Shown piece by piece: positions 32,196 to 56,534 of a stretch of DNA of 64,000 nucleotides (position 1 is the first letter of the stretch; each line of letters starts with the position of its first letter). The notes below the pieces were generated by a model that made no database searches, had not been told where the DNA came from, and worked only from the letters and a program-made list of their open reading frames with translations. Source of the stretch: an uncultured Pseudomonadota bacterium. GTDB lineage: Bacteria > Pseudomonadota > Gammaproteobacteria > Acidiferrobacterales > UBA6901. The DNA is taken from contig CAVOQN010000006.1 in assembly GCA_963698375.1 (NCBI GenBank), positions 165,488-229,487 on the forward strand, given 5' to 3'. A program made the position numbers and the translations under genes.

Positions 32196-33158
32196 TCATA
32201 AAAAACTGCTGGAGTGCACCGGCCGGAAGTAGTTGCCAATCGCCGCCACATGGCGGTGATCGGTGCCGCAGCAGCCGCCGATCACGCGCAGTTTCGGCAG
32301 CAACTTGCCAAGCGCGCGGTACGCGTGTCCCAGCTCCACCGGGTTGCCGGCATCGAGGTCGGTGCTTTCGTCGAGTTCGGCATGGCTGCGTTTCGAGGCA
32401 TTGGCGCGCAGCCCGCGAATGCGCTGCGTCCACGCGCCGCCATGTTTCAGCTCGCGCTCGAAGTGCGTGGGGTGCGCGCAGTTGATCATGAAGTAGGCCG
32501 GGTAGCCGCCGGTGTCGGCGTCGGTGCGCTCGATCGCGCGTTGCAGCGTGTCGCCGCTCGGCAGCTTGCCGTCGGTTTCGAGCGTGAACGAAATCACTAC
32601 CGGCATCTGCGCATCGCGCGCCGCCAGCACAATGCCGATCGCCTCCTCGACATAGGTCATGGTGAACGCCGCCACCAGATCGGCGTCGGTCTGCGCGAAG
32701 GTTTCAATCTGCGGCGCGTGGTAGGCGCGCGCCTCTTCCACCGACATGCGCGCATCGACGCGGTAGCCGTCGCCGCGCGGGCCGAGGTTGCCGCTGATCG
32801 GCATCGGTGATTGCGCGGTTTCGAACGCATCGCGGATTTCCAGCATCAGGCCAATCGCCTTGCGGTTGGCGTCGGCCAGCGCGACCGCGTCGTAGCCGAG
32901 TTTGGCCGCCCAGTCCGGGTTGGCGCGCCAGGTGGGAGCTTCCAGTACCAGCCCCATGCCCTGGTCGCGGGCAATGCCGGCATAGCAGCGATAATAATCG
33001 CGCAGCCGTTCGAAACCGGCATCGTCCTTGAGCAGGTCGAAGGACGCGAAATACGGCAGGTCGAGCCCGTCGTGGAAAATCAGTGTGGTTTCGAGGCCGC
33101 CGTCGGTGAGGAACAGCTGGTCGCGAAGTTGTGGGAGATGCTCGCGGTATTTGCTCAT
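32196..33158 (-). CDS. homocysteine S-methyltransferase family protein
   Basis: ORF 32196..33278 trimmed to MSKYREHL. Motifs LFLTDGGLETTLIF and C-terminal GGCCGT. Confidence 0.85.
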   Translation of the reverse strand: MSKYREHLPQLRDQLFLTDGGLETTLIFHDGLDLPYFASFDLLKDDAGFERLRDYYRCYAGIARDQGMGLVLEAPTWRANPDWAAKLGYDAVALADANRKAIGLMLEIRDAFETAQSPMPISGNLGPRGDGYRVDARMSVEEARAYHAPQIETFAQTDADLVAAFTMTYVEEAIGIVLAARDAQMPVVISFTLETDGKLPSGDTLQRAIERTDADTGGYPAYFMINCAHPTHFERELKHGGAWTQRIRGLRANASKRSHAELDESTDLDAGNPVELGHAYRALGKLLPKLRVIGGCCGTDHRHVAAIGNYFRPVHSSSFL

Positions 33159-33216
33159 GACGTTTCTCCGTATTGAGTTGATGGTATTCGGTTTCAGGAA
33201 TGTTCGTTCGCCCGGC

Positions 33217-34011
33217 TCAGCCACTGCGCTGCTGCAGCACCTCCAGTTCCTCGTCTTCGGAACGCGGGCGCGACACATCCTGCCACCGCAGCATGTCGAT
33301 CACCCGCGCCGAGGCCCCGTCGTAGAAGCCGGTTTCGCGCGCGAAGTCCTTCGGGTTGTGGAAGGTGCCGAACAGGATGTCGAACAGCGGCAGGTCGCTG
33401 TAGTTGCGCGCGTGCACGCCGCGCTCGTGGTGCGCGGAGTGGCTTTCCGGACGCTGGATGATGTAGCCCAGCCACCGTGGCGTGCGAATATTGCTGTGCT
33501 GGAACACGCCGAGGAAGGTGGTGGTATAGATCACCAGCACCGTCGCCTCGGGGGTGATGCCGACGATCATCGTGAGGCACAGGCTGCTGAGTGCCGTCCA
33601 GCCGATCATGTCGAGCGGGCTGAACCAGAAGGCGCCGGCCGCATCCAGTCGCTCGGCGCTGTGGTGCATCTGGTGCACGCTGCGCCACAGCCAGGTCGAG
33701 GCGTGCATGCTGCGGTGATAGACCCAGGCACCGGCCTCGTACACCAACAGGCCGGCGAGTGCGCCGCCCCAGGTGCCGAGGGCGGTGAGATCAAACAGCC
33801 GCAGGCCGGCGAGCGCCTCGCCCCACACGAACGGCAGGTACGACGACACCAGGAAAAACACCGCAAACATGGCGATTCCCTTCGCTTGCCAGCCGCGCAC
33901 TTTCGGCAGTTTCCGCGCCGGGGCCACGGTTTCCCACAGCATCAGGCCGCCGATGATGGTAAAGATCACAAGCGAAACGGGGTCGAGGATCAATTGCAAA
34001 AGGGTTGGCAT
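33217..34011 (-). CDS. sterol desaturase / fatty acid hydroxylase family protein
   Basis: Histidine boxes HQMHHS and HSAHHE. TM-rich N-terminus. AAGGAG RBS before ATG 34011. Confidence 0.85.
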   Translation of the reverse strand: MPTLLQLILDPVSLVIFTIIGGLMLWETVAPARKLPKVRGWQAKGIAMFAVFFLVSSYLPFVWGEALAGLRLFDLTALGTWGGALAGLLVYEAGAWVYHRSMHASTWLWRSVHQMHHSAERLDAAGAFWFSPLDMIGWTALSSLCLTMIVGITPEATVLVIYTTTFLGVFQHSNIRTPRWLGYIIQRPESHSAHHERGVHARNYSDLPLFDILFGTFHNPKDFARETGFYDGASARVIDMLRWQDVSRPRSEDEELEVLQQRSG

Positions 34012-34109
34012 GACAGGGCTCCTTGGATAATGATGAACGTGCACGCAGGCTACGCCGCCCGACCCCGGCCCACTAAAGCCAAACACGCCACCAACCGGAC
34101 ATATCAGCC

Positions 34110-35168
34110 ATGCTCAATCCGAATCCGCCTGATTCACCGCCTATTCCGGTCGCGATGCTGGTGTTTCCCGAGACCACGGCCTCGGTGGTGTATGGCATGT
34201 ACGACATGTTCATGTCGGCCGGGCGCGACTGGAGCGTGATTCTCGATGGCCGGCCCGGCCCGCAGCGGATGCAGCCGATGCTGGTGTCCGCGCGTCCCGG
34301 TCCGGTTGCCGTCGGCAACGACGTGTCGATTGCCGTGCACGCAACGTTCGCCGACTGCCCGCCGGTCGAGATCATCTGCGTACCGGAAATGAACCTGCCG
34401 CCCGGCGAACCGTTGGGCGATCGCTTCAAGGCCGAGATCGACTGGCTGCATCGAGCGCCACGCGCAGGGCGCCATTCTCGCCAGCGCCTGCTCGGGCGCC
34501 ATGCTGCTGGCCGAGGCCGGACTGCTCGACGGGCTCGATGCCACCACCCACTGGGCATGGTGCGCCGATGCTGTGCGAGCAGTACCCGAAGGTGAAGGTG
34601 CGCGAACAGCGCGCGCTGGTGGTGAGCGGCGAGGGCCAGCGTCTGGTGATGGCCGGTGGCGGCACCACCTGGCTCGACCTCGCGTTGTATCTCATCGCGC
34701 GCAGCGTCGGCGTCGAAGCCGCGATGCAGGTGGCGCGCATTAACCTCATCGACTGGCACGCCATCGGTCAGCAGCCGTTCGCGCGCCTCGCGCGTTCACG
34801 CCAGGTGGAAGATGCCGTCATCGCCCGCTGCCAGGCGTGGATCGCCGAGCACTACAACGAGCCCAACCCGGTGCACCGCGCTGGTGCGACTCTCGGGCCT
34901 CGCCGAACGTTCGTTCAAGCGCCGCTTCCAGCAGGCCACCGGCATGCCGCCGCTGGAATACGTGCACGCGCTGCGCATCGAGGAAGCCAAACAGATGCTG
35001 GAGGCGGGCGAGGAACCGATCGAGACCATCGCCCTTGAGGTGGGTTACGAAGACGCGGCGTTTTTCAGCCGCCTGTTCAAGCGCAAGGTGGCCTTGAGCC
35101 CGGCGCAGTACCGCAAGCGCTTCGGGGCGCTGCGGCAATCGCTGATGAATCCGCCGTCGCCCGGTTGA
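34110..35168 (+). pseudogene. GlxA-like (DJ-1 domain + AraC HTH) transcriptional regulator with three frameshifts
   Basis: The coding signal passes through four frames: 34110.., HAQGAILASACSGAMLLAEAGLL.., CEQYPKVKV.., ..LSGLAERSFKRRFQQATGMPPLEYV... Breaks are near 34458, 34561 and 34875. Confidence 0.75.
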
Positions 35169-35279
35169 CCTGTCCTCGTGCACGGGTGCTTCGCTTCATT
35201 TGCAGTAGCCCGGGTTTCGGCAGACACTGCAAGGCTTGGTCCGCAACCGCGGAGCAAGCGAGCGAAACGGAGGCCGACC

Positions 35280-36128
35280 ATGAACAAGGTGGAAGCGAAA
35301 GACAAGCAGCACAAGAGCTGGACGCTGGTCGCGCCGGGCTGGGGCAAGTATGACTCGTTGATGCGCGCCTGGAGCGCGCCGGTCACCGAGCGCATGATCG
35401 CGCTGGCCGCCATTCGCGAAGGTTCGCGCGTGCTCGACATCGCCTGCGGCGCCGGCGAGCCGGCGCTGACCGTGGCCGAGAAGGTCGGGCCGACGGGTGC
35501 CGTGCTGGCCACCGACTTCGTCGAGGAAATGGTCGGCTTCGCGCGCTCCAAGGCCCAGGCGCGCGCGCTCACCAACGTCGAGTTCCGCTGTGTCGATGGC
35601 GAAGCGCTCGACGCCACGGGCGGCGCGTTCGACGCCGTGACCATGCGTTGGGGCCTCATGTTTATGCCCGACCCGGTCGCGTGCATGCGCCGCGTGCACG
35701 ACGCGCTCCGGCCCGGCGGCAAGGCGGTGGTGTGCTGCTGGACCGAGGCCGCAGACAACCCGTTCGTCACTGTGCCGCTCGGGGTGCTCAAGCGGCACAT
35801 GGAGGTTCCCCAGCCGCCCGCCGGCGCCCCCGGCATCTTTGCGCTCGCCAGCGCCGACCGGTTACACGAAATCTTTGCCGAAGCCGGGTTTCGCAACGTG
35901 GCCATCGAGCAGGTGACCATCCCGATGGCCGATTTCGCCACCGGTGCCGAGTACGACGAATTCATTCGCGAACTGGCGGGACCGGTGGCCAGCCTGTTTG
36001 TGCAGCTGCCAGCCGAAACACAGGAAGTAGTAAAAAAAGAAATCGCCCGCGATGCCGAGGCCTACAGCGCCACGCCCGGGCGCGTGGTGCTGCATGGCAT
36101 CACCCATGTTGTGGTCGGCACCAAGTAG
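35280..36128 (+). CDS. class I SAM-dependent methyltransferase
   Basis: ORF 35178..36128 trimmed to the ATG after GGAGG. SAM motif VLDIACGAGEP. Confidence 0.85.
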   Translation: MNKVEAKDKQHKSWTLVAPGWGKYDSLMRAWSAPVTERMIALAAIREGSRVLDIACGAGEPALTVAEKVGPTGAVLATDFVEEMVGFARSKAQARALTNVEFRCVDGEALDATGGAFDAVTMRWGLMFMPDPVACMRRVHDALRPGGKAVVCCWTEAADNPFVTVPLGVLKRHMEVPQPPAGAPGIFALASADRLHEIFAEAGFRNVAIEQVTIPMADFATGAEYDEFIRELAGPVASLFVQLPAETQEVVKKEIARDAEAYSATPGRVVLHGITHVVVGTK

Positions 36129-36220: not shown

Positions 36221-36252
36221 TATAAAAAGAAAAGGCCCGGTGATGACCGGGC
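36221..36252 (-). terminator. rho-independent terminator (hairpin GCCCGGT-CATC-ACCGGGC plus T-rich tail on the minus strand)
   Basis: Lies between convergent genes. An A-rich run on the plus side could make it bidirectional. Confidence 0.6.
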
Positions 36253-36285: not shown

Positions 36286-37829
36286 TCAGGCCTGGCCCGG
36301 ATCGCCCGGTGATCCCTTGAGCGGTTGGCCGCCCTGCCGGGCACAATCGTCGGCGGGCAGAATCAGGTAGCCCTTGCCCTTGCAGCTGTTCATTCCACCG
36401 CAGGCGTTGCTGGCGGTGGCGCACACGGTCTTGCCCTTGCAGCTGTTGATACCGTAGCAGGCGATCTCGCCGGCCTCGACCTTGGGCGCGTACACATCGA
36501 CGGATTTGTACAGGCCGTAGAAGGCGCCGGCCGCGGCGATGCTCAGGGCGGCGCCGCGGGTGAGTTGCGCCTGGCGCGGGCGCTCGCGCCTGGCCACCGA
36601 GCGGATCATTTCCTCCAGGCACCGGTCCGGTTGCAATGGCAGCCACAGGCAGTACACGCTGGCGGCAAGCAGAACCGCCAGCGGCGCGATGAGTGACCAC
36701 AGCGGCAGGGTCATGGTATTGGTGATCATGAGCCACAGCACGACTGCCGAAATGGCGGCGCTGGCGGTGCCGACCCAGAACGGCGCGAGCCGGTCGCGGC
36801 GGATGCCTTCGCGGTACAAGCCGTAACTCGCAGCCGCGACGGAGGCGACGAATAGCGGGTACATGTAGGCGTGCGTGGCGAAGGCCGCGGCGCCCACCGC
36901 GCCGAACGCGGCGACCAGCAGCGGAATACCCGCGCACACGCCGGCGGCAACCACGGCGCCGGCGAGTGTGAACAGCTGACGCGCCATGACGCTACCACGG
37001 CGACGCCACGAGGATTGTTCATCGATGAACTGCTGCAAGGCGGCGCCGGCCGGCTTGTCCGCTTTCAACACCACGCTGTGGGCGCCGAACAGGCCGGCGA
37101 CCTCGCGTGTCTTGTCGCTGTTGCTGCCGGTAAAGTAATCGAGCTGGTCGACAATTTCGACATTGCCGAAGCCGGCGGCGCGGAACATTTCCAGGTAGCG
37201 GTCTTCGGACACCGCCCGACAACACATTCGGCCCACAGGGCCGGGTCGTTCTGGAACTGCGCGCCAATCGGCTGGCGCAGCGCGATGTCCGCCAGTTGCA
37301 GCCGCCCGCCCGGGCGCAGCACGCGGAAAATTTCCGCCAGCGCGCGCGCCTTGTCGGGCACCAGGTTCAGCACACCGTTGCTGGTGACGACGTCCACCGA
37401 GGCGTCGGGCAGCGGAATGGATTCGGCATTGCCGCCCAGGATCTCGACATTGCGGATGCCGTGTTGATCGAGGATGCCGCGCAGCTTCGTGCGCATCGCC
37501 TCGGTCATGTCGAGCGCATAGACCTTGCCGCGTTCGCCCGCCTGTCGCTGCGCGATCATCACGTCGGTGCCGGAACCCGAGCCGATGTCGAGCACGGTAT
37601 CCCCTTCCCGGATCGCGTCGGCGGCAAAGGGGTAGCCGACACCGGCAAACGATTCCAGCGCCGCCGCCGGCAATCCGGCGAGGACCGTGGCCGGGTAGTG
37701 CACAAACTCGCAGGCCGTGCGGCCGGTGGGGAAATGAAAATCGGACTGTGGCGCGTTCGCGACCTGGGTGTACATCTGCTTCACCGCGCCGAGTATGTGC
37801 TCGCGCTTGTTGCTGGTGATGGCAACCAT
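36286..37829 (-). CDS. ArsM-like SAM methyltransferase fused to a 5-TM domain and a C-terminal 6-Cys (CYGINSCKG...) domain, one frameshift in a G-run
   Basis: ORFs 37065..38030 and 36286..37236 join at ..LWAECVVG/AVSEDRYLEMFRAAGF (C-run fwd 37215-17). Motifs VLDIGSGSG and SNGVLNLVPDK. No stop codon before the TM region. Confidence 0.7.
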
Positions 37830-37903
37830 GCTTTTCTCCCGTGGTGATCGGCGCAGGGCTTTGTTGTGTGGGTCGACGTGATTATCCGAAACCGGACGCC
37901 GGA

Positions 37904-38146
37904 TTAAAACCGTTTGGTCAATTTCCGGATGCGCTGTCGCAGGGCGTCCGGCGCGACGGCGATTTCGGGGGCCTTGATCATCCCGTGCAGGCGCTTGTCG
38001 AACTCCATGCGTGAGAAGCAGGCGCGGCATTTGTGCAGGTGCGCATCAACCGCGGCGTGATCGTTCGGTTCCAGTTCGTTGTCGAGGAACTCGAACAGCA
38101 TGCGGATGGCTTCGTCACAGTTCAGTGTGCGGGGTTCTTTGCTCAT
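37904..38146 (-). CDS. RsrA-type ZAS anti-sigma factor (small, soluble)
   Basis: 80 aa. C10, H36-x3-C40-x2-C43 (HLHKCRAC). ATGA overlap with the sigma gene stop. Confidence 0.85.
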   Translation of the reverse strand: MSKEPRTLNCDEAIRMLFEFLDNELEPNDHAAVDAHLHKCRACFSRMEFDKRLHGMIKAPEIAVAPDALRQRIRKLTKRF

Positions 38147-38793
38147 TGTTCCTCTTTCGGTGGCGCGTCCACCAGCCCCTTGTCGAGGGCGTGTTGCCAT
38201 AGACACTTCTGCATCATGCTGCGCGCCCTGGCCAGGCGCGAGCGCACGGTGCCGACCGGGAGGTCCAGGTTCTCCGCGATCTCGTGGTACTTGAAACCTT
38301 CAACGTCGGCCAGCATCAGCACCACGCGAAAAGATTCGGGCAGGCTGGCGAGCGCCGACTCGATGTCATCATGCAGCAGCCGGTCGAGGAACTGTTGTTC
38401 GGGGTTTCCCCACCACAGTAGCACCGGCTGGTGCAGGCGCTCGAAGATCGAGAACGGCCGGTCATCGCCCTCCGGCTCCTCGATGTATTCCTCGTGCGGT
38501 GTGCGGTTCACGGCCCGGCGCCGCTCGCTGATGAAATGATTGGTCATGATGCGCATCAGCCACGCCCCGATGCGCGTCGGGTCCTGCAGCGTGTCGATAC
38601 TTTTCCACGCATGCTCAACCGTGTCGGCCACCAGGTCTTCGGCGTCGTGCGGATTGCGCGTCAGTCGCCGGGCCTTGCAAAAGAGCTGGCCGAGGTTGGT
38701 GTCGATGTACTGCCCCAGCAGCTCGAGGGAGGGAGTCGGAGAGTTCATCTGCCGAATGATCACCACGTCTGTTTTAAGTGTGATCCCGATCAT
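38143..38793 (-). CDS. ECF (sigma-70 family) RNA polymerase sigma factor
   Basis: Region 2 DAEDLVADTVEHAW and region 4 VGTVRSRLARAR. Start at 38793 (GGAGGG 8 nt upstream). Alternative start ATG 38748. Confidence 0.9.
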   Translation of the reverse strand: MIGITLKTDVVIIRQMNSPTPSLELLGQYIDTNLGQLFCKARRLTRNPHDAEDLVADTVEHAWKSIDTLQDPTRIGAWLMRIMTNHFISERRRAVNRTPHEEYIEEPEGDDRPFSIFERLHQPVLLWWGNPEQQFLDRLLHDDIESALASLPESFRVVLMLADVEGFKYHEIAENLDLPVGTVRSRLARARSMMQKCLWQHALDKGLVDAPPKEEQ

Positions 38794-38880
38794 ACACGAA
38801 CCCTCCGGCTTCCCGGGGCACGGGCCGCCGCGGGGGAGCAAGTGTAGTCGGAATGCGGTGTTTTCCTGTTCATAAGGGGC

Positions 38881-38909
38881 AAGACGCAAACCCCCGGCAA
38901 ATGGTTCCC
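38881..38909 (-). promoter_or_regulatory. candidate ECF promoter GGGAAC-N17-CGTCTT (sigma operon)
   Basis: The motif recurs at 38955, 58192 and 58732. Confidence 0.55.
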
Positions 38910-38954
38910 GCCAGTTTCGATGTTCCGGAAAAAGTTTTGCCCCTGCCCGGGGAC

Positions 38955-38984
38955 GGGAACTCTTTCGCGGGCGTGTTGCGTCAT
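38955..38984 (+). promoter_or_regulatory. candidate ECF promoter GGGAAC-N18-CGTCAT (divergent methyltransferase)
   Basis: Lies 67 nt upstream of ATG 39051. Confidence 0.5.
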
Positions 38985-39050
38985 GCAGCCTAACGGCGGA
39001 ATAAACCGCCCAATACCAACCACCAGCACTACTACTACGGAGGATTTACC

Positions 39051-39854
39051 ATGAGCCTGACCTGCCCAGTTAATTTTGACGTGGACTACCTGCGCCAGCA
39101 GGTGGAAATTGAATACGACCGCGTGGCCCGCGAGCCGCATGGCGAGTTTCACTTTCACCGTGGTGCGGAATACGCCCATCGCTACCTCAACTATTCGCGC
39201 GAGGACCTGAGCCTTGTGCCGACCGTAGCCAGCGACCGTTTCGCCGGGGTCGGCAACCCGCACCGGGTCGGGCCGATTTATCCCGGCGAAGTGGTGCTGG
39301 ATCATGCCTGCGGTGCCGGCATGGACCTGATCATTGCCGCGCACCACGTTGGCCCGCGCGGCCGGGTGATCGGCGTGGACATGACACGTTCCATGCGCGA
39401 GAAAGCGGCCGAGGGCGTGCGACTCGCCGGTGTGGCCGACCGCACCCAGATCCTCGACGGGCTCTATGAGCAGCTGCCATTGGAAGACAACAGCGTGGAT
39501 GTCGTGATCTCGAACGGTGTCATCAACCTGGCGCCCGACAAGACCCAGGTGTTCAGCGAGATCAACCGGGTCCTGCGCCCGGGTGGCCGGGTGTTCATCT
39601 CCGACGTGGTGATCGCGCACGAGCTGAAGGTCGAAACGCGCAGCAATCCCGATATCTGGGCGGCCTGCATCGGCGGCGCGTTGCAGGAGCATGAGCTGGT
39701 CGAACTGGCCCTCGGCGCCGGCATGAAGAATGCGCGCATCACCGAGCACTTCGACTGCTTCCGCGACACCCCGGCGGAGCGCAAGGTGGCCAAGGCGCTG
39801 AACGTGCACGGCGTGAATTTCTTCGCCAACAAGGCCTATCAGGTGTATCAATAG
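39051..39854 (+). CDS. ArsM-like SAM-dependent methyltransferase
   Basis: Motifs VLDHACGAGMD, SNGVINLAPDK and IWAACIGGAL. GGAGGA RBS. Confidence 0.85.
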   Translation: MSLTCPVNFDVDYLRQQVEIEYDRVAREPHGEFHFHRGAEYAHRYLNYSREDLSLVPTVASDRFAGVGNPHRVGPIYPGEVVLDHACGAGMDLIIAAHHVGPRGRVIGVDMTRSMREKAAEGVRLAGVADRTQILDGLYEQLPLEDNSVDVVISNGVINLAPDKTQVFSEINRVLRPGGRVFISDVVIAHELKVETRSNPDIWAACIGGALQEHELVELALGAGMKNARITEHFDCFRDTPAERKVAKALNVHGVNFFANKAYQVYQ

Positions 39855-39882
39855 TAGAGGCATCGAGGTGAAGCGGAAGATC

Positions 39883-39913
39883 AAAACCCGGCCACTGCCG
39901 GGTTTTGATTTTT
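39883..39913 (+). terminator. rho-independent terminator
   Basis: AAAACCCGGC-CACT-GCCGGGTTTT followed by GATTTTT. Confidence 0.8.
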
Positions 39914-40071
39914 AAGCGCGTCGACCTGATGCTCGGTTGGCATTTGTTGGTCAGGGCCCGGCCCGCGCATTGACACACCCCGCCCGCGGCCGCGATGATT
40001 CAGCAAGGCTGGCGATGTATATATAAGGATAAACTGTAACGCGCCGGCCACCGCCACAGGGGAGAGAGCGC

Positions 40072-41030
40072 ATGCGCAAGGAAACCCGGGCTTTACTGGC
40101 CGTCCTGCTGCTCGTTACCAGCACGCTGTGCGCCGCGTTCGAAATCAAGGAATACCCGGTTCCGAAAGGCGCGCACCCGCACGATGTCGCGCCGGCCGCC
40201 GATGGCGGCGTGTGGTACACCGCCCAGCATCAGGGCGCGCTCGGGTATCTCGACCCGAAAACCGGCAAGACCCGCCACATCCCGCTCGGCAATGGTTCCC
40301 GTCCACATGGGGTTATCGTGGGGCCGGATGGCGCCGCGTGGATCACCGATTCCGGTCTCAACGCCAATCGTGCGCGTCGACCCGAAAACCGACAAGGTCG
40401 AAGTCTTCCCGCTGCCCAAGGGCACGCCGAACGTCAACCTCAACACCGCCACGTTCGATAACGCCGGCATCCTGTGGTTCACCGGCCAGAACGGTTACTA
40501 CGGCAGCTTCGATCCCAAAACCAAAAATAACCAAGGTGTTCGAGGCCCCGCAAGGCCGCGGGCCGTATGGCATCTGCACCGCGCCGGATGGCAGCGTGTA
40601 TTACGCCTCGCTCGCCGGCAGCCACATCGCGCGCATCGATACCAAAACCGGCAAGGCCACGGTCATCGAGCCGCCCACGCCGTACCAGGGCGCGCGCCGC
40701 GTGTGGGCGGATTCACAAAACCGAATCTGGGTCAGCGAATGGATCTCCGGCCAGGTGTCGCTGTACGACCCGAAAACAAAAAAATGGAAAGAATGGAAAG
40801 CCCCGGGCGACAACCCGCAGGTGTATGCGGTGTACGTGGACAACAAGGACATTGTCTGGCTGTCGGATTTCGGCGCCAACGCCATGCTGCGCTTCGACCC
40901 GAAGACCGAAAAGTTCACCGTGATCCCGAGCAAGAGCGGCAACGCGCGCGTGCGCCAGATTCTCGGCCGGCCCGGCGAGGTGTGGTTGCCGGAGTCGGGG
41001 GCGGATAAGTTGGTGGTGATACGGGAGTGA
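40072..41030 (+). pseudogene. Vgb (streptogramin lyase)-like beta-propeller protein with two homopolymer frameshifts
   Basis: Three ORF segments (40072.., 40184.., 40128..41030) read through as FEIKEYPVPKGAHPHDVAPAADGGVWYT...IVRVDPKT...KITKVFEAPQGRGPYGI... Breaks at AA 40366-67 and A5 40523-27. Confidence 0.75.
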
Positions 41031-41117
41031 TGGAATAAGAGTGACTAGCCAGAAAATAAATCTGTCCCGGTTTTAGTCCCGATTCTGTTTTTTATGACGG
41101 CATGTTTTTTTATCAGA

Positions 41118-41150
41118 CCTTAATGCCGGGTTGCAAACCCGGCATTAAGG
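41118..41150. repeat. perfect 15-bp inverted repeat (CCTTAATGCCGGGTT-GCA-AACCCGGCATTAAGG)
   Basis: Read directly from the sequence. Lies 37 nt upstream of the NYN gene start. Confidence 0.8.
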
Positions 41151-41186
41151 AGGTCTAATAAAAGTTGGTGCTCAAGGAGAAACACT

Positions 41187-41730
41187 GTGGCCGAACTCGT
41201 ATATGTCGACAATTCCAACGTGTTCATCGAAGGCGAACGCGTTATGGCTGTTGAAACAGGGATTGCGATGAACATTTACGACGCTATGAACAACCGAATT
41301 CTGGACAACTCCTACAAGATTGATTTCGGTCGTTTGCACGAATTTCATAGCCGGTAAAGATCGGTCCAATATTAAGAGATGCATGCTATTCGGCAGCCGT
41401 CCTCCCCCCAACGATTCAATTTGGCAAATCGCCAGAAAAGCAGGCTTCGAGGTAATCACCGAAGATCGAAATGTTGCAAACAAAGAAAAGAAGATCGACA
41501 CAGGAATCGTCGCGGCTATGACGAAAGACGCCTATACCATCGCAGACAAAGCTAATGATACGATTACCCTCGTCGCGGGTGACGCAGATTTCGTACCGTC
41601 GATTCGAATGCTCAAGGATGACGGATTCAATATAGAAGTAGCGTTCTGGGATCATGCTTCCAGAGAGTTGCGGGAGGTATGTTCTAGATTCATCTCCCTT
41701 AACCCAATACTCAAGCATTTAGCCTATTAG
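41187..41730 (+). pseudogene. NYN (LabA-like) domain protein, one frameshift
   Basis: GTG 41187 after AAGGAGA gives VAELVYVDNSNVFIEGE...RLHEF. Continues in ORF 41320..41730 (..LVAGDADFVPSIRMLKDDGFNIEV). Break at TTT 41343-45. Confidence 0.7.
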
Positions 41731-41811
41731 GCTTGAGCGCTAACGAGTCAATCGCGCTATGCTAAAAGTGTCGAGGCTATTTAACTTGATGGAAAAACCA
41801 GTATTCCCTTA

Positions 41812-42002
41812 GACAACAAGGTTTTCGTCTAGATGTCGGATTTCGGCGCGAATGCCATGCTGCGCTTCGACCCGAAGACCGAAAAGTTCACCGTGATCCC
41901 GAGCAAGAGCGGTAACGCGCGCGCGCCAGATTCTCGGCCGGCCCGGCGAGGTGTGGTTACCGGAGTCGGGGGGCGAATAGGTTGGTGGTGGTGAGGGAGT
42001 GA
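41812..42002 (+). repeat. degenerate duplicate of the Vgb-like gene 3' end
   Basis: Aligns base for base with 40839..41030 apart from a few substitutions, a 2-nt deletion and a premature TAG. Confidence 0.8.
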
Positions 42003-42138
42003 CTGATAGTTTTGAATCTATTATTTCGAATGGCGTAACAAAGTATTACAGAGCTTTCGGGCCACTTGACTGCCTCACCGTACTTTACCATTATGAACCG
42101 AAGTATCCCAAAGGACTAAAGATCTTCCATGTACGTCT

Positions 42139-42585
42139 ATGACAATGAAACAGGCTGAAGGCAACACGGCGATGAAGTGTCTCGCACCCCTTGTCGGGAT
42201 ATTTTCCGGATCGATGCTTGGCTGGGCACTGTTTTTTCTATCGCCGGATTTCGCATCGGAAAAAATCACTGTGGGCGATATTTGCGCGCGACTATATGGC
42301 TTGGCATTCGGATTTTATGGTTGGGGTATTGCCATTGTTATCGGCCAAAACAAGAGTCTTTTTTGCGGTGGCTTCAATGAGTTTATGAGTGAAGATCGTT
42401 TAAGGATAAGCGGGCTTGCAGTGGTTTCTGTCGTGCTTCTCATAGTAGATGCGGGTTTGTTAGTGAAAGGCCACTACGAGATTTATTCAGTAATCTGGGT
42501 TATTTTGATGTTTGGATTTCTCGGCGAGGTTGGCTGGGCAAATCCGTTATATATACCTAAAAAGTTTATCGACTTTTTTATTTGA
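42139..42585 (+). CDS. hypothetical membrane protein (AT-rich)
   Basis: 148-aa ORF with about 4 hydrophobic segments. I recognise no family. Confidence 0.55.
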   Translation: MTMKQAEGNTAMKCLAPLVGIFSGSMLGWALFFLSPDFASEKITVGDICARLYGLAFGFYGWGIAIVIGQNKSLFCGGFNEFMSEDRLRISGLAVVSVVLLIVDAGLLVKGHYEIYSVIWVILMFGFLGEVGWANPLYIPKKFIDFFI

Positions 42586-42624
42586 GTGAATGACTGTGTT
42601 TGTCTGGAAAACGGATACTGTCTT

Positions 42625-43077
42625 ATGAAAAAGATGATTATTGCCAAACGCAACGCACGTGTACTCGGTCTGGTTGTCGGTATCATGTGGCTGACCACGT
42701 GCCTAACCTCAATGCTTTTGGTTCTAGATTTAATTCTAAGCCGAAGTGTGACCATTTATGGTTTGGTTTACCCATTGGTCTTGGCCTCGTGCGTGATAGC
42801 AGGTTTTGTCGGCGCTACCGTATTGTCGAAGCTGCTTGCGTCGTTATTTACGGTTCCCAGCGCACCAAGTGTCCGGACTATTTCTTCACCGAATAAGTAC
42901 ACTCTCGCCGGAAGTCCGGCAGCCTTTTGTTCGATAGTAGCTATTGCAGTGATTGCACCGGTTCATTTCGTTGGCGGTGTGGCGTTATCTTCCGATACGA
43001 CATCCGCCCCTATTTACCTCAGTGATGACACACAGGCAACTCCTAGCCCATCGGAAGTAAAAAATTTCGGTAATTAA
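42625..43077 (+). CDS. hypothetical membrane protein (AT-rich)
   Basis: ORF 42586..43077 trimmed to MKKMIIAKRN. Hydrophobic segments are present. Confidence 0.55.
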   Translation: MKKMIIAKRNARVLGLVVGIMWLTTCLTSMLLVLDLILSRSVTIYGLVYPLVLASCVIAGFVGATVLSKLLASLFTVPSAPSVRTISSPNKYTLAGSPAAFCSIVAIAVIAPVHFVGGVALSSDTTSAPIYLSDDTQATPSPSEVKNFGN

Positions 43078-43096
43078 TCTGAGCGCTACTTAAAAC

Positions 43097-43513
43097 ATGT
43101 CAAACGATAAAAAATATCCATCGGTTATTTGGTCCATCCTTGCGGATGACGTCAGACAGGAAACGGGCTCCAAGATATCCATCATTGGCGCTTATACTGG
43201 CAACGATATAACAGTTACGCCAACACAGCAGTTGCCGACAGGTCAATCGATTGGATTTCCGTTGACAGTATTGTATGTATTCGAAGGTGTCGAAGGTGAG
43301 CACGAAGCGCGGCTAAACATCTTCGATCCATTAGGTAAAGCAGTTGGGAATGGAGTTCTGAAGTTTAATCCGGGCAAGGTGAGTACTGTTAACGCGATAT
43401 TTAAGTTACCAAATTTTGTTGTATCTGAGTCTGGTCAATATACCGCCAAACTTTCATTTGGTGATCAAAAACCATACGAATTCAAGTTCAAGGTTAAAAT
43501 CGCACAAGCGTAA
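43097..43513 (+). CDS. hypothetical soluble protein (AT-rich)
   Basis: 138-aa ORF with beta-rich composition. I recognise no family. Confidence 0.6.
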   Translation: MSNDKKYPSVIWSILADDVRQETGSKISIIGAYTGNDITVTPTQQLPTGQSIGFPLTVLYVFEGVEGEHEARLNIFDPLGKAVGNGVLKFNPGKVSTVNAIFKLPNFVVSESGQYTAKLSFGDQKPYEFKFKVKIAQA

Positions 43514-43516
43514 GAA

Positions 43517-43661
43517 TTAAAGGGGTCAGTACCCTTTTAGCCTCGCAGTACCGCAGAATCCAGTCAGATTGAACGGCCACGCCATTTCATTGCACGTGCT
43601 GTAACAACGCCTGTTCGACCTCGTCCAGCGAAAACTTGCCCACCTCGACAACCGTGGCCCG
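43517..43661. repeat. 145-nt direct repeat, copy 1 (contains the 3' end of a lost minus-strand gene)
   Basis: About 90% identical to 44794..44939. The minus strand reads ..ATVVEVGKFSLDEVEQALLQHVQ*. Confidence 0.8.
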
Positions 43662-43668
43662 CAACTAT

Positions 43669-43742
43669 GGGGTCAGGTCTTGCAAGTTAACTTCCACTAA
43701 AATCAAATCATGGCGCAAATTGATTGCTCAAGACCTGACCCC
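43669..43742. repeat. palindromic repeat, GGGGTCAGGTCTTG family
   Basis: GGGGTCAGGTCTTG-N46-CAAGACCTGACCCC. Confidence 0.75.
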
Positions 43743-43816
43743 GTTTCACAGCGGAGTTGGTTTCTCGGACAATGTGAACGATTGCGGATCAAAGCTGCCT
43801 GCGAAGGAGATAACGC

Positions 43817-44797
43817 ATGAAAGCAGTTGTGTATGAGAAATACGGGCCGCCCGAGGTTCTTCAAATTCGGGAGGTTGAAAAGCCCGTACCCAAGGACAAT
43901 GAAGTCCTGATAAAAACACATGCGACAACGGTTACATCCGGGGACTGGAGGGTGCGGAGTCTCAATGTGCCTGTCGGCTTCGGGCTCATCACGCGTTTGG
44001 TATTTGGAATTACAAGACCAAGGCAACCCATACTCGGGACAGAGCTGGCGGGTGTCGTTGAATCGGTCGGCAACCATGTAAGCAAATTCAAGGTCGGTGA
44101 CCAGGTTTTTGCGTTCAGCGATGCCGCCATGGGTTGTTATGCGGAGTACAAATGCATGCCACAAGACGGGGCGATGGCATTAAAACCGGCCAACCTGACC
44201 TTTGACGAAGCCGCCGCCATCTCGTTTGGCGGCACAACGGCATTGAATTTCCTCAGGAGAGGAAAACTTCAGCGCGGAGAAAGCGTACTCGTCATTGGGG
44301 CGTCCGGCGGGGTAGGCACCGCAGTGGTGCAGCTTGCCAGGCACTTCGGCGCCGACGTGACCGGGGTGTGCAGTAGCGCGAACGTGGAATTGGTGAGGTC
44401 ACTGGGCGCCCGTCATGTTATCGACTACACCAAAGAAGACTTCACGCAGAATGGCAAAACCTATGACATCATTGTCGATACCGCCGGCACGGCGCCGTTC
44501 TCCCGCAGCAAGGCTTCATTAAAGGCAGGCGGCCGCCTGCTACTGGTTCTGGCTGGGCTGCCAGACATGCTTCTGATTCCATGGGGGGCAATGACAAGCA
44601 ACAAGAAGATCATCGCCGGGCCAGCGTCCGGACGCGCGGAAGATCTGCGTTTTCTCGCGAGTCTGGCTGAGACCGGTGAATTCAAACCTGTCATTGATCG
44701 GCGCTATCCGTTTGAGCAGATCGCCGAGGCACACCGCTACGTCGATTCCGGACGCAAGAGGGGAAACGTCGTCATCACGCTGAAACATGACAATTAA
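43817..44797 (+). CDS. NADPH:quinone oxidoreductase / zinc-type alcohol dehydrogenase (MDR) family protein
   Basis: MKAVVYEKYGPPEVL..., GASGGVGTAVVQLA Rossmann motif, AAGGAGA RBS. Confidence 0.9.
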   Translation: MKAVVYEKYGPPEVLQIREVEKPVPKDNEVLIKTHATTVTSGDWRVRSLNVPVGFGLITRLVFGITRPRQPILGTELAGVVESVGNHVSKFKVGDQVFAFSDAAMGCYAEYKCMPQDGAMALKPANLTFDEAAAISFGGTTALNFLRRGKLQRGESVLVIGASGGVGTAVVQLARHFGADVTGVCSSANVELVRSLGARHVIDYTKEDFTQNGKTYDIIVDTAGTAPFSRSKASLKAGGRLLLVLAGLPDMLLIPWGAMTSNKKIIAGPASGRAEDLRFLASLAETGEFKPVIDRRYPFEQIAEAHRYVDSGRKRGNVVITLKHDN

Positions 44798-44939
44798 AGG
44801 GGTCAGCACCCTTATAGCCTCGCAATACCGCAGTACCCGGTTCAGATTGAACGGCCCCGCCGTTTCATTGCACGTGCTGTGACAACGCCTGTTCGACCTC
44901 ATCCAGCGAAAACTTACCCACCTCGACGACCGTGGCCCG
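44794..44939. repeat. 145-nt direct repeat, copy 2
   Basis: See 43517..43661. Both copies begin at the stop codon of the preceding gene. Confidence 0.8.
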
Positions 44940-44949
44940 AAAATAATGT

Positions 44950-44998
44950 GGGTCAGAGAGGATTATTCCCTATAGTAGGGAACATTGTTCTCTAACCC
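44950..44998. repeat. palindromic repeat, GGGTCAGAGAGG family (degenerate)
   Basis: GGGTCAGAGAGGATT...TTGTTCTCTAACCC. Confidence 0.65.
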
Positions 44999-45036
44999 GG
45001 TTATCCGTTCGTACTCCACCTGGCCACTGACCTGTC

Positions 45037-45816
45037 ATGCTGTTAGGAAGTAATCGACTTCTCTTCACCGCCGTGTTTGTTTCCGTGGCCTTGCATGCCA
45101 TGGCGTTTGTGCTGTCTGGCCATCTGTTCAAACTCACCGGCAAGCCAGAAGTCCTCGAACTGAAGAACGAGATTATCCTTACGGAGGTGTTGCCGCCTGC
45201 GGACAATCCGGTCACGACACCCGTCACGAAGAACCAACCGGCCTCGCAGGCAGCCCCGCCTGCCCCGACGGCGGAAGCATGGGCCTTTGCGGGCCGGTAC
45301 ACGCTCAAAAACAGCAAGGGCTACCGGTATAACTGGGGACAACAGGTTCGCAGCATGATGGGCACCGCCGTCGATGGGCCCGATCAGGGCCTCGTCCGGT
45401 TTCGTCTGGAAATTGCACCCGACGGGACGTTGGCAAAACTGGAAACGCTGTGGACCACCTCTGCCGCCGCCGAGCGGCTGGCTCGCCAGGCCATCCGCAA
45501 CCTGCCGCCGTTGCCGCCCACCCCGACTGGCAAGCCGTTGATCTTTGATCGAACGATTTCGTTCCTGTCCGATACCACGGAAAGCCCGCCGACCTACAAG
45601 GACGACTGTGATCCGGTGCCACCCGCGTTCGAGAGCCCGTACACCTGGGACGGCAAAGAACCGTGGGTGCCGCCCAAACCGAAACCTGTTGTAAAGCCCG
45701 ACCCGCAGGCCATGGAAGAGTGCCTCAAGCAACTGCCGCAGGATTCGATCGAGGCAGAACTCGGGCGCAACGAGGACCTGTACGGACGATGGGGGACCCG
45801 CGAGTCGGAGCGGTAG
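45037..45816 (+). CDS. TonB C-terminal domain family protein
   Basis: N-terminal TM segment, Pro-rich linker, and a C-terminal segment GLVRFRLEIAPDGTLAKLE...AERLARQAIRNLPPLPP. Confidence 0.7.
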   Translation: MLLGSNRLLFTAVFVSVALHAMAFVLSGHLFKLTGKPEVLELKNEIILTEVLPPADNPVTTPVTKNQPASQAAPPAPTAEAWAFAGRYTLKNSKGYRYNWGQQVRSMMGTAVDGPDQGLVRFRLEIAPDGTLAKLETLWTTSAAAERLARQAIRNLPPLPPTPTGKPLIFDRTISFLSDTTESPPTYKDDCDPVPPAFESPYTWDGKEPWVPPKPKPVVKPDPQAMEECLKQLPQDSIEAELGRNEDLYGRWGTRESER

Positions 45817-45824
45817 AAAAAACC

Positions 45825-45874
45825 GGGTCAGAGAGCAATTCTTTCCAATATAAGCAACAATTCCTCTCTGACCC
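45825..45874. repeat. 50-nt palindromic repeat, GGGTCAGAGAG family
   Basis: GGGTCAGAGAGCAATT...AATTCCTCTCTGACCC. Confidence 0.8.
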
Positions 45875-45987
45875 AGATTTTCCTAAATGCTACGAGCAGG
45901 CATGGACCAAACTAAAGTTGGCCCGTGGCCAAGCCGTGAGGCTTTGCAGCGCAGGTATAGGGCAAATGAAACTATGACCAAACTAAA

Positions 45988-46023
45988 GGGGTCGGAGTGA
46001 TTTAACTTTAATCACTCCGACCC
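45988..46023. repeat. hairpin repeat, GGGGnCGGAG family (possible bidirectional terminator)
   Basis: GGGGTCGGAGTGATT-TAACTTT-AATCACTCCGACCC flanked by A-rich and T-rich runs. Lies between convergent genes. Confidence 0.75.
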
Positions 46024-46053
46024 TTATTAACTTTTTAAACTTGCGTTCGATCC

Positions 46054-46491
46054 TTACGGCTTCAGGTAGGCGTACTTTTCCTTGACCTGGAGTCGCGTGA
46101 CCTCACGGACGCCGGAGGGCACGAGCTTGATGACCGACAGAAACTTCTTCGGGTCGAGGTTTCTGCGTTTCAGGGTGATTTCGCAGACGCGGAATTCCAC
46201 ACCCTTGGACGCCAGCTTTTCCACGGGAATGCTGTAGGGATTACCTTTCTTGTCTTCCGTGCCTTCCATCAGGAAATCGACCCCGCTGGAGTGAGTGACC
46301 ACGACGATCTTTGCATTCGGTTCGACTTCCAGATGGTTGCTGATGTTGCGCAACGCGTCCGAAGCCTGCTCATTGCCGAGGTTCACGTGATAAAGCACCT
46401 TCTCCACGTCGCTGTCGGCAGCCATCGCCATGCCCGAAATTGCAATAGCACCGATCGCACCGGCGATCAGAAATACTTTACGAATACCCAT
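46054..46491 (-). CDS. periplasmic DsrE/DsrF-like (COG1416-type) protein
   Basis: Signal peptide. Motifs KVLYHVN...IVVVTHSSGV...GVEFRVCEITL...VPSGVREVTRLQ..YAYLKP. Confidence 0.75.
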   Translation of the reverse strand: MGIRKVFLIAGAIGAIAISGMAMAADSDVEKVLYHVNLGNEQASDALRNISNHLEVEPNAKIVVVTHSSGVDFLMEGTEDKKGNPYSIPVEKLASKGVEFRVCEITLKRRNLDPKKFLSVIKLVPSGVREVTRLQVKEKYAYLKP

Positions 46492-46837
46492 AGTCCAGCT
46501 CCTCGTTGGTGGTTGTTGGGAATCAAATCCCGTTGTTCCGAAGGGAACATGAGGGAGACGGGCGCGAAGGGGCTAATATTTCAGAAGAATTATTACTTAT
46601 AACGATTAATACCATTGATGGTATCGGGATGCGAGGCAAGCCAAACCGTGCCGCTATCCGGATGCTCCGAAAGGAGGGGAAAGATTGATTTTCTGCACCA
46701 AACGATGAAAGTGGACGCTAATTCAAGGTGTCAGGAGTTAGAATTATAAAGAGTCGTAGTGATGTATCGTTAATCACTCCGACCCTTTTAATTCGACGCT
46801 TTAATCGTTTGCTATTAACGTTTTTCCACTTTTCCTT

Positions 46838-47749
46838 ATGACTAAAATAAACGCGATGCGGGTTTTGTTTTCAGTTGTTTGTTTGAGCATGGTGGCTTTA
46901 AGCGCGCAGGCGGCGGAACCCATTCGCCACTACGCTGGCCCATTGTTTGATGCCCATTTGCATTACAACGCCGAGGCGGGTGATGGCCAGACTGACCCGT
47001 TTCCGCTCCCGGATGTGTTGGCGCGCATGCAGCGCAATGGCGTGCGCGGCATCCTTGCCAACTCGCGCCCGAATGATGGCACGCTGGCGCTCGCCGCAAC
47101 GCCGCTCGCGCGAAAAGCAAATGTGCAGGTGGTTCCTTTTGTGCGCCTCTATCGTAACCAGGCGGATTACGACAGCTGGTTCGGCGATGAGTCTATTTAC
47201 CAGATGGTGCAAACTGAATTGGCACGTGGCACGGGAGCCGGGCCATTCAGGGGTTTGGGCGAATTTCATCTTTACGACAGCGCCAACGCCAATGGCGTGG
47301 TGGTGAAAAAAATAATGGCGTTGGCGGAGGAAAAGAATCTGGTGCTGCTCGCACATGTGGACGATGTGGCGATTGACCTATTAATGGCCAGCACCGTGTC
47401 GCGCGGCCAGAAAGTCCGCCTGATCTGGGCGCACACCGGTATTGACGGCGCACCTGTAGCACGAGTGGAGGAGTTGCTGGTCAAGTACCCGTTGCTCATG
47501 GGGGAGTTGTCCTACCGGCCGGGGCTGGCTTGCGGCGATTTCAATTTTTGCCCCGAGTGGCGCGCCTTGTTCATCAAATACCCCGGCCGCTTCCTGATCG
47601 GTTCGGACACCTGGAACAATCAACGTTGGCTGAGTTATGACGACCTTATCAAGCGTTACCGCATCCTGCTGGCGGATTTACCTGCCGATGTGGCGCGACG
47701 CATCGGATGGTTGAATGGCAAGGAGTTGTTTGGGCTGTCGGAGCCTTGA
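46838..47749 (+). CDS. secreted metal-dependent amidohydrolase (TIM-barrel) family protein
   Basis: Signal peptide. FDAHLHYN metal-binding motif. HVDD and IWAHTG segments. Confidence 0.7.
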
Positions 47750-47897
47750 TTTTTTAAATGCGAGCTAAAACCACGAAAATCGGGTCAGACCACAGTTTCT
47801 TAAGGTATCTGTAATATAAGGGGACGGCGGGATTGCTGTTCGTGGTTAAGCTGATCAACACCAGACCTTATGTGCTTATAGATTTATAGGAGTAAAA

Positions 47898-48242: not shown

Positions 48243-48298
48243 ACTATTGCGTAACAAGTCGCCCGTTGGGACGCTTTGCCGCGATGCGGCTAATAAAA

Positions 48299-48331
48299 GG
48301 GGACGGAGGGATTAAAGTTTAATTCCTCCGT
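48299..48331. repeat. hairpin repeat, GGGGnCGGAG family
   Basis: GGGGACGGAGGGATTAAAGTTTAATTCCTCCGT. Confidence 0.7.
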
Positions 48332-56526: not shown

Positions 56527-56534
56527 CCGGCGAA

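Follow-up and report, generated by a model that had tools for sequence, protein, structure and literature searches.

The 64-kb window analyzed here, a stretch of contig CAVOQN010000006.1 from an uncultured gammaproteobacterium, encodes a compact four-gene module in which a sigma factor of the extracytoplasmic function (ECF) type and a small zinc-binding anti-sigma (ZAS) factor stand together with two methyltransferases resembling the arsenite methyltransferase ArsM. One of these, MT1, forms the first part of a larger fusion protein encoded in the sigma operon, and the other, MT2, is a free-standing enzyme encoded divergently. The reading that best fits the data is that the module constitutes a self-contained ECF stress regulon whose output would methylate a soft nucleophile, be it a sulfur, selenium or tellurium species or a metalloid, a proposal that in its entirety stands at about an even chance. 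Its parts carry different weights: the regulon architecture is very probable, the thiol-reactive nature of the signal is evenly balanced, and the class of substrate is a tentative assignment. All four genes have very many homologues in a homology search, so the open reading frames (ORFs) are not due to chance, and the ORFs and their Pfam matches bear out the positions in the gene map that an earlier note had drawn from the sequence alone, with a sigma gene, an ATGA-coupled anti-sigma gene, an ArsM-like fusion and a divergent methyltransferase. Specifically, the sigma stop and the anti-sigma start overlap (caATGAgc), MT1 starts at 37829, 74 bases downstream of the anti-sigma gene, and a spacer of 257 bp lies between the divergent MT2 and sigma genes.

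Conservation of the module and its putative promoter

The linkage between the sigma/anti-sigma pair and this kind of methyltransferase recurs across related loci. A metagenome scan with a family-specific sub-alignment, combined with loci found earlier, gave 89 loci whose methyltransferase domains are 49-84% identical to that of the window. Where at least 1100 nt of upstream sequence is available, 50 of 52 loci have the sigma and ZAS genes immediately upstream in the same orientation, a count that overstates the number of independent observations, the metagenome loci being partly redundant; the two loci without the pair are the most distant relatives. The control consisted of 77 other loci with ordinary ArsM-like genes, taken from a scan with the full-length alignment that is dominated by the generic S-adenosylmethionine (SAM) motif pattern. 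Only one of these has a ZAS match, and 53 carry the canonical SNCV motif. Four diverse homologues with annotated surroundings have the sigma, zf-HC2 and methyltransferase genes consecutively in each case and a second methyltransferase nearby in three; the annotated contigs comprise a 294-kb contig of a metagenome-assembled genome (MAG), Sulfurifustis variabilis, a Burkholderiales genome and JGI metagenome contigs. MT2 paralogues adjoin the sigma operon in many loci, and the module as such is present in Gammaproteobacteria, in Betaproteobacteria (a MAG and the cultured Aromatoleum tolulyticum) and in a Gemmatimonadales MAG. The earlier note had made its reading depend on conservation of this linkage in related genomes, and on that point the reading holds.

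The 79 complete genes of the family fall into length classes, with 37 encoding the enzyme only (~260 aa), 17 encoding the enzyme plus a membrane domain resembling the mercury transporter MerC (~445-450 aa) and a further 17 adding a domain of the bufferin type (~511-518 aa). MNIO genes accompany the module in 3 of the 89 loci. As judged from these comparisons, the sigma/anti-sigma pair has the cysteine-poor methyltransferase domain as its constant partner, and the membrane and bufferin parts are lineage-specific additions; MNIO and DUF2063 genes are found in three loci only.

A shared promoter motif ties the module together. The sigma upstream regions across loci have (T/G)GGAAC(C/T)nTTT-...-GCGTC(T/C)TG in common. 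Counted over unique upstream regions, the motif GGAAC-N15-16-GCGTC is found before sigma in 38 of 46 and before MT2 in 26 of 35, with a spacer of 16 nt in 50 cases and of 15 nt in 13. Family loci contain 116 matches in 658 kb, compared with 15 in 1.07 Mb of the 77 control ArsM-like loci, where the motif is at chance level. Within the window, GGAAC-N15-17-GCGTC matches exactly twice on both strands combined, and both copies lie inside the spacer between sigma and MT2, each oriented toward its own gene. The total of two is unremarkable, as shuffled sequences give a mean of 1.02 matches per 64 kb, but the expectation for a match within the 257-bp spacer in the right orientation is about 0.002 per site, and the joint placement of both copies in one spacer with correct orientations is far from chance. 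An additional internal promoter between anti-sigma and MT1, as found in loci L001 and L090, was considered and set aside, as the window has no exact match there; the closest approximation, which sits at the 3' end of the anti-sigma gene, has a 22-nt spacer.

The genes that share this promoter or this position in other loci give further hints as to function. Motif-preceded genes elsewhere encode DsrE-family, DUF2917 and DUF1858 proteins, a secreted cupin, a glutathione S-transferase (GST), an old-yellow-enzyme-type (OYE) reductase and a PALP cysteine-synthase-like enzyme, and genes for OsmC, thioredoxin, DsrE, a bacterial globin and a fatty-acid hydroxylase lie directly downstream of short methyltransferases. 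By their annotation, the DsrE, thioredoxin, OsmC, GST, PALP and globin neighbors fit a theme of thiol or sulfur stress. Taken together, the computational evidence argues for an autoregulated, compact ECF regulon with predicted promoters of its own and a sulfur, thiol and redox flavor.

The window also holds a second, paralogous sigma/ZAS module at 56074-58759 on the minus strand. Its sigma factor (56792-57454) is 44% identical to the first, and its ZAS anti-sigma factor (56535-56795), 33% identical to the first, shares the C/H/C/C pattern. A secreted DsrE-like protein (56074-56526) is encoded after the pair, and two genes come before it, one for a class-II glutamine amidotransferase (57414-58145) and the other for a DsrE protein (58261-58701). 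Directly upstream of these two preceding genes lie the window's only copies of the variant GGACC-N16-GCGTC, at 58194-58219 and 58734-58759. This arrangement is suggestive of a sister regulon whose putative -35 element differs slightly. Between the two sigma modules, an AhpC/TSA_2 (peroxiredoxin-like) gene at 54471-55079 adds to the redox flavor of the region.

Putative sensor, enzymes and the composite MT1

The sigma factor contains Sigma70_r2 (residues 31-94, E 2.1e-13) and Sigma70_r4_2 (residues 142-193, E 4.9e-15) with no region 3, and its score of 92.4 bits against the sigma70-ECF model TIGR02937 (cut-off 42.9) places it among the ECF sigma factors. The anti-sigma factor belongs to the ZAS proteins by its Pfam zf-HC2 match (38.5 bits, gathering cut-off 22.2) and has no hydrophobic stretch in its 80 residues. 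Counting on the translation agrees with the earlier description of an 80-aa soluble ZAS protein with C10, H36, C40 and C43, and the proposed likeness in ligand spacing to Streptomyces RsrA is exact, the RsrA ligands being C11, H37, C41 and C44 (quoted in PMC2893595). Across 68 unique homologues, C10 is conserved in 100% and H36, C40 and C43 in 98% each. Because the ligands are conserved and spaced as in RsrA, a role of the anti-sigma factor as a putative zinc-thiolate sensor is well supported. The label "RsrA-type" used in the earlier note holds as a likeness only, the protein being soluble with a Cys ligand 26 residues before the His; it does not extend to the curated models, as the RsrA equivalog TIGR03988 (mycothiol-system anti-sigma-R) is missed by the anti-sigma factor (51.7 bits, cut-off 62.5) and the best curated sigma model, TIGR02947 SigH_actino, by the sigma factor (125.1 bits, cut-off 251.55).

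Both methyltransferases have ArsM chains as their closest PDB sequences (phmmer E 7e-27 for MT1 and 3e-28 for MT2), and in a Foldseek search with the AlphaFold2 model the top 13 matches are all ArsM or AS3MT, human AS3MT included. The substrate site tells a different story. PDB alignments (MT1 to ArsM 5eg5 and 5evj, MT2 to ArsM 5evj) show that CmArsM Cys72 is replaced by Val, ArsM F(W/Y)GCG reading FAGVG in both enzymes, and that CmArsM Cys174 is replaced by Gly, ArsM ISNCV(C/I)NL reading TSNGVLNL in MT1 and ISNGVINL in MT2. The equivalent of Cys224 is retained, with ArsM GEC(L)GGA corresponding to AECVVGA in MT1 and AACIGGA in MT2; the full set of MT2 motifs is FAGVGNP, ISNGVINL and WAACIGGAL. 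These alignments confirm SNGVINL and SNGVLNL in place of ArsM SNCVINL, as first read from the letters. That reading was right about the loss in SNGV and had overlooked a second lost cysteine, where ArsM GCG is GVG here. Among 24 aligned homologues, the invariant residues of MT1 include G152 (a lost-cysteine position), C202 (encoded at 37224-37226), C299, H320 and C404, and every methyltransferase-only family member whose gene start is on the contig has the GVG/SNGV signature.

Membership in the ArsM family proper is not supported by the curated models. NF008823 gives 199.9 bits for MT1 and 196 bits for MT2 against a cut-off of 263, both enzymes are far under the cut-offs of the remaining NCBIfam ArsM models, and neither has the ArsM C-terminal domain; the methyltransferase domains also match UbiE/COQ5-type Pfam models. 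By sequence, MT1 and MT2 are the nearest relatives of ArsM, yet not members; since only one of the three aligned arsenic-site cysteines is kept, they are assigned to a clade separate from ArsM. The possibility raised earlier that they belong to a characterized family is not borne out, as they score below every curated ArsM model and the literature found does not describe the family. Identity with the thiol methyltransferases MddH and MddM was also considered; the literature describes those as UbiE/UbiG-type, and these descriptions set them apart. Mercury methylation by MT1 or MT2 was rejected on chemical grounds, as SAM is a methyl-cation donor to nucleophiles. Methylation of Hg(II) requires a carbanion donor, such as a methylcorrinoid.

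The earlier note left the fusion partner in MT1 unnamed; it consists of a MerC-like membrane domain and, after it, a domain of the BufA2 bufferin type. Residues about 275-452 contain five helices predicted by AlphaFold2, and Pfam MerC (PF03203) matches 16 of the 24 aligned family members (E <= 0.01, best E 1.8e-8), which makes homology of this domain to MerC likely. Cys299 in the first membrane helix is encoded at 36934-36936, His320 at 36871-36873 and Cys404, on the cytoplasmic side past helix 4, at 36619-36621. The C-terminus scores 70.3 bits against NF050166 Cu_RiPP_BufA2 (cut-off 60) over profile positions 2-77 of 79 and has six cysteines within residues 455-500, and the fifth membrane helix is the equivalent of the bufferin signal peptide. 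A tblastn search of the whole 64-kb window with the proteins of locus L005 gave no match to MNIO/BufB or DUF2063/BufC, and neither merR, merA nor merP is present among the annotated neighbors or the scanned window ORFs.

Three other loci (L005, L006 and L163) carry genes for MNIO (MbnB_TglH_ChrH) and DUF2063 (HvfC_N) proteins directly after the fusion gene. The order there, at 9552-12422 in L005/L006 and at 5766-8706 in L163, is fusion gene, MNIO and DUF2063 genes, a small motif-preceded DUF2917-like gene and an MT2 paralogue. By predicted gene content, these loci amount to a complete bufferin maturation set inside the sigma operon. A 2025 survey of MNIO clusters by Leprevost et al. reports a few MerC–Buf2 chimeras that have five helices in the membrane and the bufferin domain in the periplasm, finds that many bufferin precursors are unlinked to MNIO genes, and places sigma/anti-sigma genes with Buf1 and not Buf2 clusters, the anti-sigma factor being NrsF (PMC12452194).

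The earlier note treated 36286-37829 as a single gene, but in the window as given MT1 is not one frame. The 1544 nt comprise two overlapping ORFs in different frames, 37065-38030 and 36286-37236, and a blastn comparison with four independent short-read assemblies (L167-L170, 99.1-99.9% identical to the window) shows GTCGGGGCGG in these relatives against GTCGGGCGG in the window, which is one G short at 37215-37217. The intact homologue from the short-read assemblies (P0001, 514 aa) differs from the repaired window translation at a single position, D270N, and the 216-aa sigma gene is likewise called in these assemblies. Two more genes of the window are split across frames, namely one for an AraC/GlxA-like regulator at 34110-35168, whose HTH_18 match falls in the third frame, and one for a Vgb-lyase-like beta-propeller at 40072-41030. 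The MT1 G run and these split genes suggest that the assembly carries homopolymer-type indel errors. The frameshift is there in the sequence as given, which would agree with MT1 being a pseudogene in this organism, a real one-base deletion leaving a truncated methyltransferase without its membrane and bufferin parts. Such a pseudogene is improbable, however, given a lesion within a G homopolymer, at least two other frame-broken genes nearby, as is typical of assembly indel errors, and a gene that is intact in all four short-read assemblies. An assembly indel is more likely, because of the intact relatives and the two further frame-broken neighbors.

Feature map and neighboring genes

Table 1 Coordinates of the sigma/anti-sigma/methyltransferase module and its associated signals in the window
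Feature	Position	Strand	Description
Sigma gene	38143-38793	minus	216-aa ECF (group IV) sigma factor; Pfam Sigma70_r2 and Sigma70_r4_2
Anti-sigma gene	37904-38146	minus	80-aa soluble ZAS protein, C10-x25-H36-x3-C40-x2-C43; zf-HC2 match
MT1 gene	36286-37829	minus	three-part fusion, 514 aa when intact; 1-nt deletion in the window
MT2 gene	39051-39854	plus	267-aa free-standing ArsM-like methyltransferase
MT1 methyltransferase domain	37045-37829	minus	residues 1-262; Pfam Methyltransf_31 and Methyltransf_11
MT1 MerC-like membrane domain	36475-37008	minus	residues about 275-452; five helices
MT1 BufA2 bufferin-type domain	36325-36552	minus	residues 427-502; six Cys; NF050166
Frameshift site in MT1	37215-37217	minus	G3 in the window, G4 in relatives (blastn)
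Sigma-facing motif GGAAC-N16-GCGTC	38883-38908	minus	ends ~90 nt before the sigma ATG
MT2-facing motif GGAAC-N17-GCGTC	38956-38982	plus	ends ~69 nt before the MT2 ATG
Terminator-like hairpin and T-run	36235-36252	minus	begins 33 nt past the MT1 stop; consensus scan
Likely MT2 terminator	39883-39917	plus	hairpin AAAACCCGGC-CACT-GCCGGGTTTT, then GATTTTT; read from the sequence

The hairpin after MT2 is absent from the output of the consensus terminator scan, and searches for tRNAs and Rfam RNAs within the 64-kb window found none. Beyond the end of MT1, the window encodes a homocysteine S-methyltransferase (32196-33158, minus), a methyl-transfer gene near MT1, as well as a membrane protein of the fatty-acid hydroxylase family (33217-34086, minus) and a third, UbiE-like methyltransferase (35178-36128, plus) convergent with MT1; none of the genes in 32196-36128 has the promoter motif. 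A fatty-acid hydroxylase gene also follows the short methyltransferase in loci L131, L135 and L144. Past the propeller gene, G+C falls from about 0.62-0.67 to 0.46-0.57 (window 41000-49000), and this low-G+C region, which may be a foreign insert, opens with an NYN-domain protein (41320-41730) and small membrane ORFs. Further away, a large FecR/TPR protein (4333-7812) shows 100% identity to a protein encoded on a 305-kb NCBI/ENA contig and has named relatives from uncultured Gammaproteobacteria, and on a related contig the FecR/TPR gene adjoins genes for a sulfate-transporter/STAS protein and a TusA-like protein.

Mechanism, rival explanations and relation to known systems

The proposed mechanism begins with a resting state in which the anti-sigma factor would hold the sigma factor via its Cys3-His zinc site. 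A thiol-reactive agent, whether an oxidant, a reactive sulfur, selenium or tellurium species or a soft metal(loid), would attack this site, and the freed sigma factor would then amplify its own operon and switch on MT2. In turn, MT1 and MT2 would transfer the methyl group of SAM to a small soft nucleophile, giving a product that is less reactive or volatile; candidate substrates are sulfide, persulfide or a thiol, a selenide or telluride species, or a metalloid bound to the single cysteine that is left. MT1 would be tethered to the membrane by its MerC-like five-helix domain, which would end in the periplasmic six-cysteine bufferin-type domain. By analogy with the Mer relay from MerP via MerT/MerC to MerA, the periplasmic domain of the long forms might capture the substrate, and the invariant Cys299, His320 and Cys404 might pass it on to the catalytic domain in the cytoplasm. 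A first guess for the substrate is reactive sulfur, or selenium and tellurium as its heavier congeners, because DsrE, cysteine-synthase-like, globin and thioredoxin neighbors recur, and a soft metalloid is kept in play because of the MerC and bufferin parts, which speak for soft metal(loid)s with at least equal force. A more ambitious version, which we consider unlikely, would make the fusion a one-polypeptide machine for uptake-coupled methylation, in which the bufferin-type domain captures a thiophilic metalloid or chalcogen, the MerC-like channel hands it on via the invariant Cys299, His320 and Cys404, the cysteine-poor ArsM-like domain methylates it with SAM and the zinc-thiolate of the anti-sigma factor senses the captured agent itself.

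Several observations weigh against the stress-methylation regulon as proposed here. The copy in the window falls short of the Pfam MerC model (11.7 bits, E 0.41, gathering score 27.6), the AlphaFold2 model has low confidence in its membrane and bufferin parts, and the bufferin domain may stay unmodified in this organism because the window is without MNIO and DUF2063 genes. About half of the family, 37 of the 79 complete genes, is a methyltransferase alone, so a substrate relay cannot be the core mechanism. The MT1 gene is frameshifted in this assembly, and the redundancy of the metagenome loci mentioned above counts here as well. As regards the signal, the curated RsrA and SigH/SigR models are both missed, and MseR of Neisseria, the best-studied proteobacterial look-alike, has the same ligand spacing and gave no response to oxidants (PMC2893595). 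The thiol-oxidation switch that the earlier note expected from the spacing goes too far on this account, spacing alone being insufficient.

Other explanations of the same genes have to be set beside this model. One is that the enzymes still act on arsenic or antimony, for instance on methylarsenite, for which two cysteines suffice in ArsM; the missing thiols would come from Cys299 and Cys404 of the MerC-like domain or from a small-molecule thiol, and displacement of zinc by As(III) or Sb(III) would constitute the sensing step. ArsM and AS3MT are indeed the closest proteins in sequence and structure, the cysteine corresponding to ArsM Cys224 is invariant, and two more invariant cysteines come with the fused membrane domain. 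Yet all members checked carry other residues at the positions of Cys72 and Cys174, among them the 37 methyltransferase-only genes, which can offer no fused cysteines, MT1 and MT2 fall under all ArsM model cut-offs, the Pfam-annotated neighbors include no ars gene, and ordinary SNCV-type ArsM genes go without the sigma/ZAS link (found in 1 of 77 loci), which leaves arsenic or antimony only a slim chance. Equally slim is the chance of a bufferin system under ECF control, in which a copper-chelating ribosomally made, post-translationally modified peptide (RiPP) is the actual output, copper or another metal the signal and the methyltransferase an accessory, for example for bufferin tailoring. The C-terminal domain passes the curated BufA2 model, the three loci with MNIO and DUF2063 genes continue with a motif-preceded MT2, and bufferin operons are ECF-regulated and copper-induced, the model being the SigF/NrsF-controlled buf operons of Caulobacter (PMC11626156). 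Against this stand the rarity of the bufferin domain (17 of 79 complete genes) and of MNIO genes (3 of 89 loci, and none in the window, which has no DUF2063 gene either), the methyltransferase domain as the invariant partner of sigma and ZAS, and the published association of sigma/anti-sigma genes with Buf1 not Buf2 clusters and with NrsF rather than ZAS (PMC12452194).

Slightly better placed, though still improbable, is a regulon of the SigR or MseR kind that answers oxidative or electrophile stress in general, with the enzymes performing repair or housekeeping methylation that has nothing to do with metal(loid)s or chalcogens, for example of a quinone or lipid. Thioredoxin, OsmC, GST, old-yellow-enzyme-type reductase and fatty-acid hydroxylase neighbors in other loci would suit such a regulon, as would the matches of the domains to UbiE/COQ5-type models; however, the closest relatives are by far ArsM-type and not UbiE, one substrate-site cysteine is strictly retained, genes for DsrE sulfur carriers recur beside the module, and a fusion to MerC-like intramembrane Cys and His residues and a Cys-rich periplasmic domain is hard to explain in this way.

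Comparison with described systems places the stress-methylation regulon among several known families. SigR-RsrA of Streptomyces coelicolor and SigH-RshA of mycobacteria are likewise ECF sigma factors co-transcribed with a small soluble ZAS anti-sigma factor and provide the best-scoring, yet missed, curated models for both proteins. The hosts here are Proteobacteria and Gemmatimonadota, not Actinobacteria, and there is therefore no mycothiol context; moreover, the promoter is GGAAC-N16-GCGTC, and the conserved output is methyltransferases, not a thioredoxin system. The sigmaE-MseR pair of Neisseria meningitidis (NMB2144/NMB2145) is likewise proteobacterial and autoregulated, with a small cytoplasmic ZAS protein of exact RsrA spacing. 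Its regulon is very small, and its -10 element, CGTCTAAH, is similar to GCGTCT here; it differs in its -35 element GTMAGBWTT, shorter spacer and MsrA/MsrB output, the two systems being likened without a sequence comparison (PMC2893595). ArsM and AS3MT have the fold and SAM-binding core of MT1 and MT2 but differ in that two arsenic-site cysteines are lost here and a sigma/anti-sigma link is present. The MerC–Buf2 chimeras match the C-terminal half of MT1 in architecture, and the papers on them and on BufA2 mention neither an N-terminal methyltransferase domain nor a ZAS anti-sigma factor (PMC12452194, PMC11626156); compared with BufA2 bufferins, the bufferin part here is an optional add-on to a methyltransferase-centered module.

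The likeness to the Mer relay is by analogy: a periplasmic thiol-rich binder, an intramembrane-cysteine domain and a cytoplasmic detoxifying enzyme would correspond to MerP, MerT/MerC and MerA. MT1 departs from it in combining the parts in one polypeptide, in using a SAM methyltransferase, not a flavin reductase, and in having a single cysteine in its first transmembrane helix where the Mer transporters have a pair. MddA, MddH and MddM1/2 are likewise SAM-dependent and methylate toxic sulfur nucleophiles, some being induced by sulfide and oxidative stress, some membrane-bound, and MddH genes lying among metal-resistance genes; compared by description only, they are UbiE/UbiG-type enzymes of ~200 aa or integral membrane proteins, not ArsM-like, and no sigma/anti-sigma control is reported for them (PMC11445057, PMC12904073).

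The open-access literature searched yielded no description of this family, its regulon, its dedicated promoter or the combination of ECF/ZAS, ArsM-like, MerC and bufferin parts. It likewise gave nothing relevant on ECF factors with an arsenite methyltransferase, on an ArsM-MerC fusion, on RsrA with sulfane sulfur or on ArsM homologues acting on selenium or tellurium. The earlier remark that no regulon of methyltransferases under an RsrA-type switch has been described agrees with these searches. ECF/ZAS pairs, ArsM-like enzymes, MerC and bufferins are individually known; what was not found described is their combination, the promoter and a large cysteine-poor ArsM-like clade tied to a sigma/anti-sigma pair.

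Microbial methylation governs how mobile and how volatile arsenic, selenium, tellurium and sulfide are, and the known enzymes leave part of it unaccounted for. The present comparisons point to a widespread, sharply defined ArsM-like clade that is predicted to be incapable of ArsM-style arsenite binding and comes with its own sensor, regulator and promoter, to which some lineages add putative membrane and periplasmic capture domains of their own. They also add a proteobacterial family to the RsrA-like anti-sigma factors and extend the bufferin story, as the reported MerC–Buf2 chimeras are the tails of methyltransferases under predicted ZAS/ECF control. The compact regulon is directly testable, since the motif predicts its targets and two carriers, Aromatoleum tolulyticum ATCC 51758 and Sulfurifustis variabilis, are in culture. 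If the uptake-coupled version were true, the module would represent an unrecognized, widespread route of biological methylation for selenium, tellurium, antimony, bismuth or reactive sulfur, with a sigma regulon of its own.

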